DNA of 64,000 bases from Callorhinchus milii. Its lineage: Eukaryota. Positions 5,775-36,075 of the stretch are shown here, in pieces. Within the stretch, counting starts at the first letter, position 1; every line of letters begins with the position of its first letter. The DNA lies in contig NW_024704742.1 in NCBI RefSeq assembly GCF_018977255.1, positions 46,006,001-46,070,000 on the forward strand, written 5' to 3'. Below the pieces are notes generated by a model, which did not search any database, was not told the DNA's origin, and saw only the letters and a program-made list of their open reading frames with translations. The position numbers and the translations under genes were made by a program.

Positions 5775-6015
5775 TGCTCTATTGGTGGATTGCTTTTCTG
5801 GGGGTAATAATTCCTTCAAAAAATAATAATAATAAATTGGTCACTTTAATCCATGACTGTTGGTGGGAATCTGCTGTGTGCAATTCACTGCCACGTTTCA
5901 CCCACAAAATATACAGTCTATTCACTTTACAGTATATTCTGTGAAGTTCTTTGAGACGTCTAGAAGACGTGATAAGGCGCTATATCAAATGCAAGGATTA
6001 TTACTATTATTGTTA
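5775..6015 (+). mobile_element. 5'-truncated SINE
   Basis: Body and tail gtgataaggcgctatatcaaatgcaaggattattac. Confidence 0.85.
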
Positions 6016-6651
6016 TTAACAAAGATGGGATTATAAGAATATATAGGTGAATCTTGCCAGTCCTGACTTTTTTTACATTGGAACATTGATGGCAATTATT
6101 AACATTTTGTAATTGGACATGTGTGAATGGTACAAGTTGGAACACAGCTTGAACTTACTTCAGGAAAGGATTCGCATCCTCAGCATCAATCCATCAATCA
6201 GATTACAACAACAGCAACAACAAAGTTACATTTCTAAAGAGCCTTTCACGTCGGGAGGATGTCCCAAGACGCTTGACCCAAGATTAGATTATGAATTCCA
6301 TGCCATACAATATGAGTATGCAGCCTTCCTGTCGGGGATATGTTGACAGATCACAACCAGATTGTTTTTAGTAATTTTATTATAATAATCCTTGCAATTT
6401 ATATAGTGATTCACTCAGCAGGAAGACTTCTCAAAGTGCTTCACAGGATACACTTCAAAGGGCAATGACAGTGTAATTTGTAGGCTTTGAGGTGATGGGA
6501 AACTGTTTGAGAGGGAGGAGGGAGAAAACAATTTTTTACACTGCTCAAGCAGGCCTCCTGGTGGATAACTAGAAGCCCAGTGTAAATAACATGCTGTATA
6601 TGAGGATTGACAAGCATTTCACTATCTCCACAGCTCTAGCCAATAAACTGT

Positions 6652-7030
6652 GGAGGCCTGTCACATATTGGTTAGAGCACTCGCCTCACAAGTGAGAGGA
6701 CAACGGTTCAATTTCCGGGAGGGGCGAAACATGAGGCAAGTTTCCTTACTCCATACACCTCTGTTTACCTTGCATTAAGTAAGAACCCGGTTGTTAGTGG
6801 ATTGGCAGATCACTTTTCTGGAGGTAATAATCCATTCAAAAAATAATAATAATAATTTATTCATTCAATCCACAACTGTTTGTGGGACACTGCTGTGCGC
6901 AATTAACTGCCATGTTTCGTCCACAAAATATTTAGTCAATTCACATATTCTGTGAAGCGCTTTAAGACGTCTCAAATACATGATAAGGAGCTTTATCAAT
7001 TGTAAGGATAATTATTATTATTATTGTTAT
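6652..7030 (+). mobile_element. Full-length tRNA-derived SINE
   Basis: Head with A/B-box-like tggttagagcactcgcc...ggttcaatttcc, followed by body and (TTA)n tail. Confidence 0.9.
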
Positions 7031-7831
7031 TACTATATTATTATCTTCCTGAATGAGGATAGCAGCATTATTACCCAGTATATGGAGAAAGGAGCGAGGG
7101 GAGAGAAAATGACAACTTGCAGAAGCAATAGGATTTGAAAACGTAACTTTAAACATTTCCCAGATGCTTTTGTTTCTGAGGTCTTTTTCTCTCATGCTTA
7201 AATCTCTTGGTCTTTCGGATAATTAGAACCAATTAAAAATCTACAGGATCTGTTTTTCAACAATCTGTTCATGTTAACGTCAGGTTTATGAAATAGATTC
7301 ATATTGAAAAGATCACTGGCCTTTATGTAATAAGGCAGCCTTACAATGGAGCTGTTTTCCATTAGGTTTCTGCATTAATATTTAAATAGCTTTTGAAAGA
7401 AAAATAATTCAGGACAAGGTAATTAAACAGAATAATCTAAGATGTAGATTTATCACTTTTTGAATACAGATACGTGAAATATTTTAAAATATTAATCAGA
7501 AGCTTTGAAAGTGCTTGAAACTACAAGATGAAGTCTACTATAAAGCATAATGGCTACCAGCCTTACACAGTATGTATTTTTACAATTCTTCCCGTGGGAC
7601 TCGAAAGGATTGCTGTTTGTCTAATAGGCGGCAATTTCCAACAGAATTCAGAGTGGATACTCCTTAATAAAAACAATTATCTTTGCATTTGGTATCATAC
7701 CTTATCATATTGAAAAGTCTCAAAGCACTTCACACTTTAGTGCAGTTACTGTTTTTATTGGCAAATGTTGTAGCCAATTTGTGCACAGTAATTTCCCATA
7801 AACAGCCATGAAATGATAGACCATTTTTTTA

Positions 7832-7975
7832 ATAGAAACATAGGAGTAGGCCATTCAACCCATTGAGCCTGTTCCGACATTCTGTAAGATCATGGCTGAA
7901 CTGTATCTCAAATCCAATTACCTGCCCTTGCCCTATATCCCTTAATATCCTGACCTAACAAATATCTGGCTAATC
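7832..7975 (-). mobile_element. CR1-type LINE 3' UTR fragment
   Basis: atagaaacataggagtaggccattc is the reverse complement of the CR1-type end gaatggcctactcct...tctat (compare 63728-63760). Confidence 0.65.
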
Positions 7976-8716
7976 TATCAATGTAATATTTTGGCTAGGT
8001 CATCGGAGGAACTGTCTTCTCTTTTTGAATAGTATCCTGAGGTCTTTGATGGGATCCGCCTGAAAATGGGGATGGAACGTTGATTTAACATCTCATCCGG
8101 AGAATCGCATCTCTGACAATGCAGAGCTCGCCAGATCTGCATTGGATTGTCTGCATGTGAATGCAAAGTCAATAGCCAGAAGTATGTTATATATTTCATA
8201 CCATGTTCAGGGGTTCCAAGATTCCAGTGTTCCAGTTACTTTAAAAGGAAATCCATCTGAAATCTTTGCATATCATTTGCTTTATCAAGTGTCCAAAGGG
8301 GTTTGGACATTAAACAATTTCTTCTACTATGTTTTTTATTGTCAGTAATATTTCTGATGGTTCCAGTGATGTATATTGAATCAGGCAACACTGAGGATAG
8401 AGGTTACCATTTTCTAACATAAGTTTACAATGTCTACAAGAGTTTACAATGAGTTTGGAATCTTTTTGAGGGAAAACACAAACAAAGCTCATCAAGTTTG
8501 TGAAGGAGAAGAGGGTAAATGACAGTTAAATCAGACCACATTGAATCTAAATAAGGTTCACGTATATCGTAATGTAAATCCTCCTCAAAGATCAAAGATG
8601 TATTATCCGATCAAGTATGAATACAGAAATCTAGCCTTTGCTCCTATTATGGTTGCCTTTCGTCTTTAGGATGAACAGGGTCAATGAAAAGATTTGGGTG
8701 TCACAAGACCAAAAAT

Positions 8717-8962
8717 CTCAGGAGAAGATTACATACGAAAAGGAACATCAACAGGCCCAACATTTACCTGGAACTAACAGGGAAGCAGTAAGGAAGGGGG
8801 TTAAGGCTTTCCAAGGAGTTTATTGTTGAATGTGTTAAATTACACCATATGACTGGAATGGATTTTCTAGGATTACAAGTGTTCTGTCTGCGATGGTGAA
8901 GATCACGACTGCCCTCAATTATTTTGTCACTGGGTTATTTTAATGACCTGGGGGACATCACA
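8717..8962 (+). pseudogene. Decayed PIF/Harbinger transposase (N-terminal part)
   Basis: Translation with a stop and a frameshift gives IYLELTGKQ*GRGLRLSKEFIVECVKL ... VLSAMVKITTALNYFVTGLF* ..LGDIT. This resembles the Harbinger pattern FLDLSEEQCLRRLRLSR...LPVAVKVTAALNFFATGSFQ...GD, recalled from memory and not searched. Confidence 0.6.
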
Positions 8963-10589
8963 GACAGACGCTTAATTAGGACACTGGTGCTTGGCATCTG
9001 CTCATGTTTACTAGTGATCTGTCTGAAAGCAAACCCCTGTACTTCCTTCCATAAGTTCAGAGAAACCTAATTTCATGGTTGAGCAAATTCTCTCTCCCAA
9101 ACTGCCCAACCTTGACCAAAGGGCTCTTGGATAGTAGACCACTACTGCAGGTTAGATCATTTTAAAATTACATCACATGTTGCTTAATACTGACGTATAA
9201 ATAATTGTATTGTAGCTATCACGTTGCTTTCCATGTTGTGTGGTGGACCATAATGTGTATTTTTCTGCACCTTAGTTTGAAGGCTAGTACCTGATTTCAC
9301 TGATTTTTGTTGCTACATCCTCTTTTGGTCTCTCGGATACATCTCTTTCTCGTGCAGATATGACTTGTTCCACACTTATCAAGATACAAGTGTCCTTTCA
9401 TCTCTACAGGTGTCTAGGATAATAATAAAGTGGTTACATTCAGCTATTTCAGTCTTCAGGCATTAGTTATCTTTCTCCTAAACCAAGTCAGTGTTGTGTG
9501 CAGTGATATGCAACAAATTATCTGTAACCAGCCTCTGCTGTTTAGCATTGACACAGTAGTGTGTATTCTCATGGCTTCAAGCCAACAGGAGAACGTAGAA
9601 GAGCAGGAGCATTCAAGAATTGATTTTAAAAAATCCTGAGCAGAGAATGAAAATTCAGGACATGCACAGACTACCAGGTCACATTTCCTACACATTCTAG
9701 GGTGGGGGTTGCTTTTCCTCATTTTCAGTCAATGTTTAAAAGCAGCCATGTTATAAAATAACGTGTTCACTAAACAGCTCATCCGCTGCTTCCAGAAAAG
9801 GCTCCAAAAGATTTGTCCACACAACGTACATCCTCAGGATGTCTCAACAACCTCTCAGTTCATATTTATTGACCTGGTGGGCTTCCAGTTAGAAGCACGA
9901 GCATGGAGAATTGGTTCTTGTGAGTAATTTGACAGTTTTTCCAATGATATATAAAGTTGTTCAGTTGCTGAAGGTTACATTCTAATATTAGCTGTCAGAT
10001 GCTACCCATGTATGTGCTGAACCAGTGGAACCACATTGAATGGCCCTCAATGCCTGATAAATAAAGAACATGAGGATAATCAAAGGCCTACTTTCTTCAA
10101 GAAGCCCAATTCACATTTGCTGAGCCAGCACTCCAACCAGGTCTGACTGACCCCGGGTGATTGGAACTGTTTCCTTCCCTCCCCCCATAAACTATTCTTG
10201 TGCTTTTTCCTAGTGCACCAAACAACAATGGTACTCAAAGTAAGCAGTCTTCCATTGAAGATGGGGGAAGCGGTAGGCATGTTCTCCAGCCAGCATGAAG
10301 GGAATTATGGCATGCATTGCTTTATTCTTGGCAAACATCTGCAAAAACAGCCGTTTGCCACCTTTTTAATTGCATGCTGCAATATGAAGCTGGCCAGGAA
10401 TATAAACTGACTCAATTGACACCTTCCTCTTGGCTACTGTAGCTTTAAATTTGAGATGCAACTGTTTTCAGTTTTTAATGATATGAAAAATGCTATGACA
10501 CATCTGTGTGGATTATGGAAAGGTTACATTGTGTGAAAGATCACCCCTCAGTCATGTATGAAATCAAAGGACAACAGGAGAAGCTCTCT

Positions 10590-25921: not shown

Positions 25922-26213
25922 ATAATAATATATAATAATAATCCTTGCATTTGATATAGCGCCTTATCACGTCGCGGCAGTCAATGGAGCACAACAGTGT
26001 CCCACAAACTGTTGTGGTTTGAGCAACTAAATAATTTTTTTAAGGGATTATTATCCCCTGGAAAAGCGATCCGCCAATTATCTAATAACCAACTTACTGC
26101 CAGTTAAATAAAGGCATATGGAGTAAGGAAACTTGCTTGACGTTTCACCCTGTCAGGAATAAAACCCAGGTCCTCTCGCTTGCAAAGTGAGTGCTCTAAC
26201 CACTGAGCTACAG
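25922..26213 (-). mobile_element. tRNA-derived SINE, internally deleted
   Basis: Tail at 25922-25972 and head gtgctctaaccactgagctacag. Confidence 0.85.
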
Positions 26214-26289
26214 TGGTTGCCCATTTTTTTGGGGGGGACACCAGCGAGGCTACAGGAGTTTACCACCGCCTGCCTCTCTGGGCCGGCAC

Positions 26290-26640
26290 TACACACACAC
26301 ACAGAAAAACACACACTTACAAACACAGAGACACATACATTCACAGATTCAGAGACACACACACAGACACAGAGACACACACACTCACAGACACAGACAT
26401 GCACACTCACAGAGAGACACACACACACACTCATAGACAGAGAGGAAGACACACACACACACTCATAGACAGAGAGGAAGATACACACACACACTCATAG
26501 ACAGAGAGGGAGACACACACTCACAGAGAGAGAAACACACTCACAGACAGAGAGAGGGACACTCACAGACAGAGAGAGACACACTCACAGACAGAGAGAG
26601 AGACACACTCACAGACACAGAGAGAAACACAAACACACAC
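26290..26640. repeat. Compound (CA)/(GA) microsatellite
   Basis: acacactcacagacagagag variants; this explains ORFs 26153-26500. Confidence 0.95.
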
Positions 26641-26648
26641 TCTTGTGC

Positions 26649-27090
26649 TCAAACCAGAGTGTAGAGTTGTCGTTTAACCCAGCAACAGAGAGCCAGCATA
26701 ACATGGCCATTACCACTTGTACACACACCAGTACCACCACCGGATGTATCACCATGTTTTAAGATTCTAGTGGATGTCGGATACCAGCAAGTACTCCCAC
26801 CAGGAATGTTTGACATCATGCTCAATCTTTACCTGCAATAACTTGATCTTATCTAAGGCATCCGTAGTTTCAACGCTCAATTTCCAGTCTGCCTCTTTCA
26901 ATTTGATCAGTTGTTTCTTGAGTTCTTTATTGTCTGTCAATTGTTTAATTTTCTCAAAATTAAATCCCAGATTCATTTTTGTTATGTATAGTTAAATTTT
27001 TCTATCGTCTTATCCCATCTATACCATTCAGGAACAGTCATATCCTGCCCTTCACAAATCCTTACATTGCGGGCTCCATTAATACAAGAT
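26649..27090 (-). pseudogene. env: Retroviral env C-terminal remnant (heptad repeat, Trp-rich membrane-proximal region, TM)
   Basis: With frameshifts: CINGARNVRICEGQD...MNLGFNFEKIKQLTDNKELKKQLIKLKEADWKLSVETTDALDKIKLLQVKIEHDVKHSWWEYL / WYPTSTRIL / MVIHPVVVLVCVQVVMAM / MLALCCWVKRQLYTLV*. It lies downstream of LTR-PBS-SD on the same strand. Confidence 0.8.
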
Positions 27091-28299
27091 AATATAACAT
27101 TACTACATTTGTTCTATAACACAACATACCTAAAACCCACATAAAACCAAAATGTTCACAACCATTAGCCTTCTGAAGCCTTTGTCAAAAGTACATGATG
27201 TTGTACAGTTCCACTTCAGGCTTCCCTCTCGATTCCCTTTCATATCGATCCCGTCACCTCGGCTCACATCACATGTCCAGAATTACTCAGCCTTTGCTTT
27301 TCCATTTGGTTGTTTTGTTCTGGAGTGACAATTGGTCTCTGGTGCTGTATGGATCTGAGCACAGACAGCGGACATATTCCCAGCACCAGCAGCCATTTTG
27401 TTAGCATCTTCCACAGCTGTGAGAGCTAAACATCCAGACTTCACATCCACTTTTAACTAATTCATGTGATACCATCGATCTCTGTATTTGTCTCTGCTGA
27501 GCTCAATGAGCAGTTGGTAAACACAGAGACTCGCCTTATCTTAGAAAGATTCCTAAAAATACACAAAAGAGACTGAAATGAAAACCAAATTCTCTCCAAG
27601 CAGCCTTGCTGGCCAGCATTAAAAACAGTGTTGTGCTCCTTTTGTTTTTTTAAACACTCCTTTATCTGTCGCTTGCTTGCTACTCAAGATTACACAAACC
27701 AAAAAAAGTGCTCGCAGTCAGTGATTCTAAAAGCTGCGCAGTCAGTGGCTGCAGTTAGTGATTTTAAAGCTGTTCGCAGTCAAGTGATTTTAATTTCAGA
27801 GTGAAAAGGAATAAACATGAAATAACGTTATTGTACTAGCCAAGGGAAGTTGAGGATAAAGAACAAATTGATATCAATTAAGAACATACAAACCAAATCA
27901 TGTTCATTGTTCGCAATAAGCTCTAGAACCATAAGTCTGAGAAGTTAAGGTCAGGGATACGGGGAGGAAAGACAGGGTAGAGTTGAAGAACAAAGAGGGT
28001 GAGGGCATTCATGACAGTCGTTTTAACCCATGCTGCTCTCTCGCGCTCTCTTTCTTTCAGCTTGTCACATTCTCTGCTGTATAGCCTTTCTTTCCCTTTT
28101 CTTTACCTTATTATTATCCAGTTGTTTCTTTAAAAGCTTCCTTTAGTTTGTATGATACCTCATTGTCTAGACACAATCCCTGTAGTAAGTACATCTCCAA
28201 TTTACTATCCTTAATTTTTTGATTAATGAAGTCTCCCATTGTCTTCTCTATGTCTACCCATGTAGCCCCAACTAGTTAATCCATTCATCCGCTAATAAT

Positions 28300-28437
28300 A
28301 GATAATTGTCTGTGGAGGACAAGGTTGCAGGGCTACGGTGAGAGAGGAGGGGAGTGAGATTGATTTGGATAGTTATTTTCAATGAGCCGGCGCAGACACA
28401 ATGGGCCAAATGCTATATAATTCTATGATTCTATGAT
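28300..28437 (+). mobile_element. CR1 3' end inserted in the leader of element 2
   Basis: gcagggctacggtgagagagg...attctatgattctatga; matches the CR1 end at 63640-63760. Confidence 0.8.
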
Positions 28438-28591
28438 CTAGATTTTTGGGCACAACCATAGTGTCGAATCTTTCTAATCTACCTGAATCCATCCCTTGTA
28501 ACTCGATTGCAATTCTTGACTAACAGGTATACTCACATCTCCTCAGGTTGGTCCACCAAACTGAGAAATGTCTCTTCAGGTTGTTTCACGA

Positions 28592-28609
28592 ATCCGGGTC
28601 ACGGCACCA
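28592..28609 (-). promoter_or_regulatory. Primer-binding site complementary to the tRNA-His 3' end
   Basis: Minus strand TGGTGCCGTGACCCGGAT(TCG), 3 nt from the LTR-terminal CA. The plus strand reads as the tRNA-His end ..CGAATCCG(G/A)GTCACGGCACCA including CCA. Confidence 0.9.
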
Positions 28610-28612
28610 ATA

Positions 28613-28964
28613 TGTTAACCTCGTCCCCCAAGGTTTTATTACAAATGGTGCAGGTGATCAAGCTATACAAATTGTAAGGATCATGTCAGGATTCTTTGAC
28701 TGTTCCGCTCCCTTCTGACTTCCATCTTGTCGCTTTATTCCTACGTTCTCAGCTTGTCCTGCTCCCCCCCCCTCTCTCTCTTCTTCTACATTCTCCTACA
28801 TTCTCCCTTCATCTCCCACAATCTCCCAACAGCTCCTACATTCTCGGATTATTCTGCTCCCCTCAGGTCCCAACAATTACTGGAAAAAACTCTTCCTTAT
28901 ATCCTAAACTATCCCAAACTTGCTTTCTGCAGAACCCTGAGAACCTTGTGATGTGATTCCTACA
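28613..28964 (-). mobile_element. 5' LTR of element 2
   Basis: Minus strand TGTAGG...TTAACA, TATAAG at about 28896-28901, AATAAA at 28734-28739 and 28635-28640, directly adjacent to the PBS. The outer boundary is inferred from TG..CA only. Confidence 0.75.
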
Positions 28965-28989
28965 AGGCACCAAATTATCAATGTCAGCT

Positions 28990-29520
28990 TTTTGGCAAGG
29001 ACCTCTTTATCTTTTTCCTTGAGCTTCCATAACTAAGTCTCTCTACAATCTCTTTCACAGAGTCCCCTGGGTACCTTGTATGAATGTTACGGTCAGCAAG
29101 CATGGCCTTTCCTCTGTGTCCACTGTGGTTAATTTGTGCAGCACCGGTATATCGTTTATAGCGGAGGGAAATGTGGGAAAGGTGCAGCCACACTTTTCTA
29201 TTGGCCCAGGATATAGGTAATAATTTTCATATTCCTATTCATATTTCCCTTAAGTTAAAATTGATTTAATAAGGCCTACAAGGAAGGCGTCTCTGTAAAT
29301 GCCTTTCTCTCTGAATATTCTATGCATTGGGCAATTTTACCTTGTAAAATGTTCATAAAAAACCTGTCAGCATCACTTTAGTTTGGGAAGAGTGGCAATA
29401 GCCAGATCAATCTATTTCTGCAAAAGATCGGTGCATTGAGTTTTGACCAGTGTTCTGAGGGGAGCTGAGGGAGGTTTAACTTATGAAAAAAAATTGATCC
29501 ATTTCAGTATTTGGAGAGCT
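28990..29520 (-). pseudogene. Decayed PIF/Harbinger transposase fragment
   Basis: ORF 28984-29193 HLSHISLRYKRYTGAAQINHSGHRG...IHTRYPGDS resembles Harbinger DCTHVAIRAP...FINRKGYHS...ARYPGS. Confidence 0.5.
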
Positions 29521-35765: not shown

Positions 35766-36075
35766 GGAGTCTTGTAGCTCAGTGGTAAGAGCACTCACCT
35801 TGCAAGCGAGACACCTGGGTTCAATTTCAGGTAGGGTAAAACCTTGGCCAAGTTTTCTTATTCCACACGCCTTATAATAATCCCTTCAAAACAAAACAAT
35901 AATAAATTGGTTATTTTCAATTCACGATTGTTTGTGTGGCACTGCTGTGTGCAATTGGTTGCTGTGTTTCGCCCACAAATATACAGTCAATTCACTTTAC
36001 AGCATATTCTGTGAAGCGCTTTGAGACGTCTAGAAGATGTGGAAAGCGCTATATCAAATGCAAGGATTATTATTA
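35766..36075 (+). mobile_element. tRNA-derived SINE
   Basis: Head ggagtcttgtagctcagtggtaagagcactcaccttgcaag...ggttcaattt and (TTA)n tail. Confidence 0.9.

Follow-up and report, generated by a model that had tools for sequence, protein, structure and literature searches.

Does the retroviral debris on the minus strand of a 64-kb stretch of the Callorhinchus milii genome (C1:46006001-46070000 of the 991.5-Mb assembly; hereafter the window) derive from one element, and to which lineage does its envelope gene belong? A sequence-only reading of this DNA had proposed a tRNA-His-primed endogenous retrovirus (ERV) remnant without pol, beginning at 28964 and ending at 26649 in a lokiretrovirus-like env. 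We found that the interval 26649-29158 is a degraded, internally deleted ERV remnant, in which a long terminal repeat (LTR), a primer-binding site (PBS), a leader, non-coding internal sequence and the 3' end of env follow one another on the minus strand in proviral order (29158 to 26649). The proposal of a tRNA-His-primed remnant lacking pol therefore stands, with the LTR reaching to about 29158 rather than 28964, and the env tail is reassigned to the Ovex1-ORF3/TERV/GGLTR11 family. The interval is probably the wreck of an ancient class-I-like (epsilon/Ovex1-like) ERV, or of a non-autonomous derivative of such an element, with an env of the Ovex1-type family. The locus is dead and has no function now. 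What survives would be a 546-nt 5' LTR with the tRNA-His PBS and the leader behind it, then ~1.1 kb of non-coding internal DNA, a possible env start and the last ~150 env codons; the losses would comprise gag and pol, the larger part of env, and the 3' LTR with the polypurine tract. The features of the remnant are as follows, in window coordinates.

28613..29158, minus strand: 5' LTR, 546 nt, with a degenerate 5' end and a 3' end in ...AACA, aligned with three other LTR copies
28589..28609, minus strand: PBS corresponding to the 3' end of tRNA-His(GTG) plus CCA, 20 of 21 bases matching the host tRNA-His (genome pattern search and ARAGORN)
28531..28539, minus strand: splice-donor-like GAT/GTGAGT in the leader, from sequence reading, not conserved in copy L023
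28299..28437, minus strand: high-copy short repeat within the leader (most of the 45 listed genome matches fall on query positions 525-672)
27181..28289, minus strand: non-coding internal region, covered by colinear, overlapping partial copies, without gag or pol
27264..27425, minus strand: acceptor-like AG and ATG at 27407 with a signal-peptide-like open reading frame (ORF; MLTKWLLVLGICPLSVLRS...), a possible env 5' end
26649..27096, minus strand: frameshifted env 3' end, about the last 150 codons (tetrapod-only hidden Markov model (HMM), exhaustive profile search and copy L021)

The env tail and its family

The env tail comprises, in order, a Cys-containing stretch, a heptad repeat, a membrane-proximal HSWWE..W-x-PT segment, HPVVVL with a transmembrane (TM) helix, and a short tail. 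Its translation (...VKHSWWEYL / WYPTSTRILKH / HPVVVLVCVQVVM...) ends in YTLV-stop at 26649 and is interrupted by a stop codon as well as by four or more changes of frame; an in-frame stop lies just upstream. The components listed in the sequence-only reading (heptad, HSWWEY, WYPTSTRIL, HPVVVL, TM segment and short tail) were all confirmed, and its view that the tail is not of the gamma type was upheld: neither CX6CC nor an immunosuppressive domain (ISD) is visible in the retained part, and the nine ORF pieces of the window gave no match to TLV_coat or any other env Pfam family, just coiled-coil noise. A phmmer search of two pieces against the PDB sequences yielded nothing significant, the best match being an Ebola GP2 membrane-proximal and TM peptide (E 0.062). 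The genome contains one other copy of the tail, at C5:53.79 Mb (L021, positions 5711-5241 of that locus; 78.5% identity), in which the last 93 codons are open; both tails carry several frame changes and stops.

A query profile built from two overlapping natural pieces, one from the window and one from L021, was used for an exhaustive HMMER protein search, which returned 32 proteins at E<=1e-3. The nominal top match (P0001, 5.8e-10) was rejected as spurious, being a 974-aa repeat protein that only the TM part of the profile matched, in 15 stretches; the best real match was an alligator protein (1.6e-9). The matches sit at the C-termini of proteins of 400-870 aa (409-874 aa for the named ones), in which no Pfam domain was found. 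The named matches are uncharacterized proteins of owls, cranes, a sandpiper, an alligator and a frog, and further searches added squamates, a turtle, songbirds and ~190 more, all those named among the 120 listed being birds. The relatives share the motif ...H-x-WWE-x-(L/F)-F-G-W-S-P-T-A-T...L-H-P-I/V-V....

The reverse test, with an HMM of 785 positions made from 20 tetrapod proteins only, recovered the window at nt 26988-26785 (i-E 1.4e-8, positions 659-726) and, less strongly, at nt 26758-26693 (i-E 0.21); L021 was recovered at 8.7e-15, and positions 659-778 of the model were covered overall. When the family protein P0007 was searched against the whole genome, the C5 tail was the sole match (9.6e-7), and the frog protein P0029 had no match in the whole genome. 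No longer relatives emerged when the L021 ORF was used in a word-indexed protein search, and a 43-aa piece with the Cys residues (27113-26982) was not significant alone when aligned to the family with hhalign. L021 showed 39% identity over 44 aa (E 6e-9) to chicken LOC422926 (P0082, 873 aa), whose sequence includes the chicken line shown in the supplement of PMC2717909. In its supplementary files 4 and 5, that paper displays the same motif in the chicken and zebra-finch Ovex1 ORF3, in GGLTR11 and in the TERV Env, and the family is described there, in the part of the paper available, as lacking CWLC, CKS17 and CX6CC. On that account neither the gamma-type ISD nor CX6CC belongs to the family as a whole. 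Given the reciprocal profile matches and the printed motif, we assign the env tail to the Ovex1-ORF3/TERV/GGLTR11 Env family.

The tail shares with this family the C-terminal heptad repeat, the signature (E/K)H-x-WWE-x-(L/F)-x-x-W-S/Y-P-T-A/S-T, HP-V/I-V directly before the TM helix, and the short tail, the signature being legible in the translations of both the window and L021. It differs in that its host is not a tetrapod, whereas the named relatives are all from sauropsids or a frog, and in that ~120-150 of ~800 residues survive, in broken form, with ~39-44% identity over the best 44-64 residues. The full architecture of the family (signal peptide, surface subunit, furin-type site, fusion peptide and a subunit of ~430 aa) is not present here, where positions 659 to ~778 of 785 are retained.

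Five squamates (a lacertid, an agamid, a colubrid, an anguid and a phrynosomatid) carry intact family members of 787-821 aa (P0053-P0057). Four of the five are labelled as an isoform of 'peroxisome proliferator-activated receptor delta', and the lacertid protein is named hypothetical or uncharacterized only. The lizard and snake proteins are 79% identical and align without gaps over 776 aa. The squamate gene looks like a domesticated env distinct from the bird Ovex1, which lies between CD8 and SMYD1.

Primer-binding site, LTR and internal sequence

The sequence TGGTGCCGTGACCCGGATTCG lies at 28609-28589, 3 nt beyond the terminal ...AACA of the LTR. Without the CCA, its complement has an exact match solely in the window, and with one mismatch it corresponds to 21 identical genomic sites; with up to two mismatches, the pattern retrieved 42 genomic sites, compared with 10 for the reversed control. 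ARAGORN identified tRNA-His(GTG) genes at 11 of the 11 loci scanned among the 21, and in each the match lies at the gene's 3' end; no tRNA gene was found within the element region itself. The LTR copy L023 carries the same PBS, with mismatches at different bases. That tRNA-His genes of the host itself match at their 3' ends makes priming by tRNA-His well supported, as the sequence-only reading had proposed. Walleye dermal sarcoma virus (WDSV) also uses tRNA-His priming, and the element has in this respect a PBS of the epsilonretroviral kind. This is the first member of the Ovex1-type Env family in our analysis with an assignable primer, whereas no PBS could be found for Ovex1.

A genome DNA search followed by BLAST against the fetched loci identified three other LTR copies, at C1:97.63 Mb (L023), C4:16.22 Mb (L026) and C2:69.15 Mb (L027). 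In the alignment, these three copies start with TGTCAG... at a point corresponding to window position ~29158, where the window's own first bases are degenerate. The TG at 28964, taken in the sequence-only reading as the start of the LTR, is therefore internal to it, although an LTR on the minus strand is indeed present. A TATAAGG (28901-28895) and an AATAAA (28640-28635) are conserved, and the U5 region of the window is shorter by ~69 nt that L023 and L027 retain. The window (29152-28629) is 78% identical to L023 by BLAST, and the Kimura two-parameter (K2P) distance of its LTR is 0.275 to L023 and 0.158 to L026. The copies are not an LTR pair, and their large divergence overall (K2P 0.135-0.275) indicates that the family is old. 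No second LTR was found within 16 kb, nor across the entire window.

Two features adjoin the end of the remnant.

26265..26648, no strand assigned: GT/CT-rich, microsatellite-like array of imperfect tandem repeats, ~400 nt, abutting the env stop
26000..26240, minus strand: copy of a tRNA-derived short interspersed element (SINE), outside the provirus and marking its end (Rfam tRNA at 26146-26217, 38.4 bits)

The array takes the position that a polypurine tract and 3' LTR should have. The SINE is present in at least one copy in most of the fetched loci, and has an inverted partner at 35773-35811 of the window. Behind the env tail of L021 come a purine run and next a stretch alignable to the initial ~55 nt of the LTR copies, and this ties the env tail to the LTR family of the window.

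Dozens of copies of the leader repeat (28437-28299), at ~80% identity and on many contigs, were recovered among the matches listed. L026 also has a short repeat of the leader type, at a similar distance from its LTR. The short repeat may have been part of the element before its spread. The donor-like site noted in the sequence-only reading (junction at 28537/28536) is present, but it is not conserved, since L023, the sole other copy spanning it, lacks the GT; simple arithmetic gives about one GTRAGT per 2 kb by chance.

The LTR, the PBS and env had been suggested as genome queries with which full-length copies might be retrieved, and the genome searches recovered partial copies; among the related copies examined, none has kept gag, pol or a 3' LTR alongside. 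The non-coding internal region is tiled by copies at C1:97.63 Mb, C3:92.48 Mb, C2:106.69 Mb, C15:0.17 Mb and C4:26.85 Mb; in window coordinates, L023 extends to 27753, L025 covers 28120-27588, the C2:106.69 Mb copy 28110-27313, the C15 copy 27541-27181 and the C4:26.85 Mb copy 27541-27298. No Pfam domain and no ORF kept between copies was found in 28289-27181. A gag-like ORF starting with MGD at ~28240 was rejected, as it is not conserved in L023, L025 and L062. At L024, each of the six frames contains very long ORFs at ~6000-9800 (C1:97.649-97.653 Mb), which suggests masked or very low-complexity sequence.

The two acceptor-like AGs of the earlier account, with exon starts at 27552 and 27416, are both present, by sequence reading alone. 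The ATG that opens the signal-peptide-like ORF follows nine bases after the second of them (AG at 27418-27417), an arrangement that recalls Ovex1, whose ORF3 begins 11 bp after its splice site in the text available of PMC2717909. Aligned with hhalign on the N-terminal signal-peptide columns of the family, this ORF gave no significant match (probability 0.3%); it possibly represents the 5' end of env.

The Env fold and the associated pol lineages

The fold tests were run on a bird member of the family, and not on the window fragment. In the family members, a furin-type site precedes a hydrophobic stretch and a membrane-anchored subunit, which at ~430 aa far exceeds a gamma-type TM subunit in length. 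By ESM features, a 478-aa sandpiper protein lay nearest to the Gypsy/Baculo_F clusters (0.96-0.94) and to the Fusion_gly clusters (0.93). Two AlphaFold models were obtained, from 29 sequences (model 1; a poor pLDDT of 56.5) and from 137 sequences (model 2; pLDDT 70.7, pTM 0.54). Foldseek against the PDB placed paramyxovirus or pneumovirus F proteins in all listed rows down to rank 36 with model 1 and to rank 24 with model 2 (best E 3.4e-5 and 4.4e-5, respectively), with foamy-virus Env following at ranks 43 and 25. In BFVD, an unnamed 928-aa protein, A0A384ZVF2, came first (E 1.9e-11, 19% identity), followed by mononegaviral glycoproteins, F0 and baculovirus F; A0A384ZVF2 is possibly a virus-labelled member of the Ovex1-type family. 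The Env proteins of WDSV and of walleye epidermal hyperplasia virus 1 (WEHV) appeared at ranks 14-15 (both E 1.3e-3, probabilities 0.54 and 0.85). The family profile found nothing among the PDB sequences.

The family model resembles the F-type proteins (paramyxovirus and pneumovirus F, baculovirus F, gypsy Env and foamy Env) in the order of cleavage site, fusion peptide and a long helix like heptad repeat A (HRA), and in its beta-rich domains, with an Ig-like sandwich just before the C-terminal heptad and then a TM helix. It differs from them in having no significant sequence-profile match, low TM-scores and Z values of at most 5.5. With moderate confidence, the models point to an F-type fold for the Ovex1-type Env family, and they give a hint of kinship with epsilonretrovirus Env. 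Among the literature searched, no paper naming both 'Ovex1' and 'paramyxo*' was found.

With the epsilonretroviruses (WDSV and WEHV), the likeness consists of tRNA-His priming and of the presence of their Env proteins among the fold matches of the family model; however, that fold match is weak, no reverse transcriptase (RT) is present here, and the likeness of the Env proteins considered is one of fold. Henzy and Johnson describe the epsilonretrovirus Env as structurally distinct from the gamma and beta types, in the portion available of PMC3758190. Published RT relationships, in the accessible parts of the papers concerned, place Ovex1 nearest to SpeV (PMC2717909) and crocodilian ERVs in a cluster with Ovex1 and SpeV (PMC4299795). 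A paper on the genome of a holocephalan reports only SnRV-like and epsilon-like ERV lineages in the text available (PMC4422223). In a swallow gene model, an Ovex1-type Env lies behind a pol whose RT matches the XMRV and murine leukaemia virus (MLV) RT (1.7e-145), and a stork gene model has the same Env type behind a pol whose RT is about equally far from those of foamy virus and MLV. These fusions show that the Ovex1-type Env rides with ordinary retroviral pols, and they may be chimeric.

The intact element would probably have used host tRNA-His to prime minus-strand DNA synthesis. A singly spliced mRNA would have given rise to its Env, and this protein, after cleavage at a furin-type site, would have acted in membrane fusion as a class I fusion protein of the F-like kind. 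The heptad repeat that survives may correspond to a helix like heptad repeat B (HRB), the Trp-rich HSWWE..W-x-PT to the membrane-proximal region, HPVVVL... to the anchor, and Y-x-x-V in the tail to a sorting signal.

Alternative readings and significance

Several observations weigh against a single class-I-like element with an F-type Env. No gag or pol was found within 10-20 kb of nine related loci, in a scan of 121 + 97 ORFs from their flanks that covered ORFs above 75-85 aa and L024 up to ~6000; the RVT_1 matches in these flanks were accompanied by a LINE-type endonuclease or were short fragments. The term 'class-I-like' therefore draws on the PBS, on the published relatives of the family and on a single gene-model fusion. 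For the donor, the acceptors and the signal peptide, the reading goes no further than the motif. As for the fold, the Foldseek TM-scores were low (0.12-0.26), and a second look with VIA gave Langya F a Z of 5.5 (259 aligned residues, rmsd 19.6), tied with small Ig-like domains that match model residues 277-341, which directly precede the C-terminal heptad. In the wide VIA search with model 1, which is independent of Foldseek, long helices dominated, and Newcastle disease virus F came at rank 13 (Z 6.5, rmsd 19, 297 residues). Baculo_F was found by Pfam in one of the 29 family members (E 0.03) and PF00523 in none. To these must be added the points on the unity of the element: no copy elsewhere in the genome joins the LTR and leader with the env tail, the window alone having both; the 85 nt at 27181-27096 have no counterpart in any other copy; and the tails of the window and L021 share identical start and end points between unrelated flanks.

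These last points are what would be expected if two unrelated fragments, the LTR, PBS and leader of one family and the env tail of another, had come to lie side by side by chance, as would be the sharp 5' and 3' limits common to both tail copies. The strand and order of the parts are proviral, however, and the L021 tail is followed by a purine run and a start-like sequence of the same LTR family, so we regard a chance adjacency as improbable. Both tails begin at the same base (L021 5711 and window 27096) right behind a pyrimidine-rich run ending in AG, and no homology between the two loci was detected upstream of 27096, even at word size 7. A run of this kind at the 5' homology limit of both copies could also mark the tail as a decayed exon of an env-derived host gene, domesticated as Ovex1 was and duplicated once, and birds and squamates do have intact, conserved env-derived genes of this family. 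Such an origin seems extremely unlikely to us, as both copies have several frame changes and stops, the family HMM finds no upstream env exons in the window or in 20 kb around L021, and the purine run and LTR start lie behind the L021 tail.

The identification of the tail as that of a lokiretrovirus, made in the sequence-only reading from the H-x-WW..HPVVVL signature, was not borne out: the signature is genuine, but it belongs to the Ovex1-ORF3/TERV/GGLTR11 family, as printed in the supplement of PMC2717909. A cartilaginous-fish lokiretrovirus remnant, with an Env related to the F proteins of Mononegavirales, would fit the F-like look of the Ovex1-type family, since the lokiretrovirus Env is reported as similar to PF00523 in the available text of PMC7947760, which gives hosts from lampreys to reptiles. 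Both Env types are non-gamma and combine a furin-type site and fusion peptide with a coiled coil and a TM helix, and both have H-P right before that helix, although this resemblance is trivial. The two differ in signature, in published host range and in the RTs linked to them. In the available supplement of PMC7947760, SWWE and WSPTA have no occurrence, and the C-terminus of the Loki-Bsp Env, as printed, is different; the main text of that paper, as available, nowhere uses the word 'cartilaginous'. PF00523 was matched by none of the nine window pieces and none of the 29 family members (E<=10). The named hosts of the Ovex1-type family are mostly birds, and a survey of bird ERVs has lokiretroviruses as outgroup only, in its accessible part (PMC12287698). 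The RT linked to the Ovex1-type Env in the swallow gene model is gamma-like, which comes near the outcome that the sequence-only reading had itself named as speaking against a lokiretrovirus. A lokiretrovirus origin is thus very unlikely, and we favour the old epsilon/Ovex1-like ERV, or its non-autonomous derivative, as the source of the remnant.

This remnant is the first non-tetrapod record that we have found of an Ovex1-type envelope, and it comes with a primer assignment. It modestly widens the known host range of a poorly understood family by a new host class. Since 2001-2009 the Ovex1/TERV-type envelope has remained an orphan, with no Pfam family, no solved sequence relative and no primer for Ovex1. 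A more far-reaching proposal, which we consider rather unlikely, is that the Ovex1-type Env is the F-fold envelope of an old, tRNA-His-primed epsilon/Ovex1-like lineage already established in cartilaginous fishes, with the F type ancestral for retroviruses and the gamma type (ISD/CX6CC) a later replacement. If it were true, the F-like Envs of foamy viruses and lokiretroviruses, together with such an Ovex1-type Env, would make the F type the ancestral retroviral envelope. The finding bears on how frequently retroviruses have swapped envelope types, and on the roles of the conserved bird gene Ovex1 and of the squamate gene annotated as a PPARD isoform.

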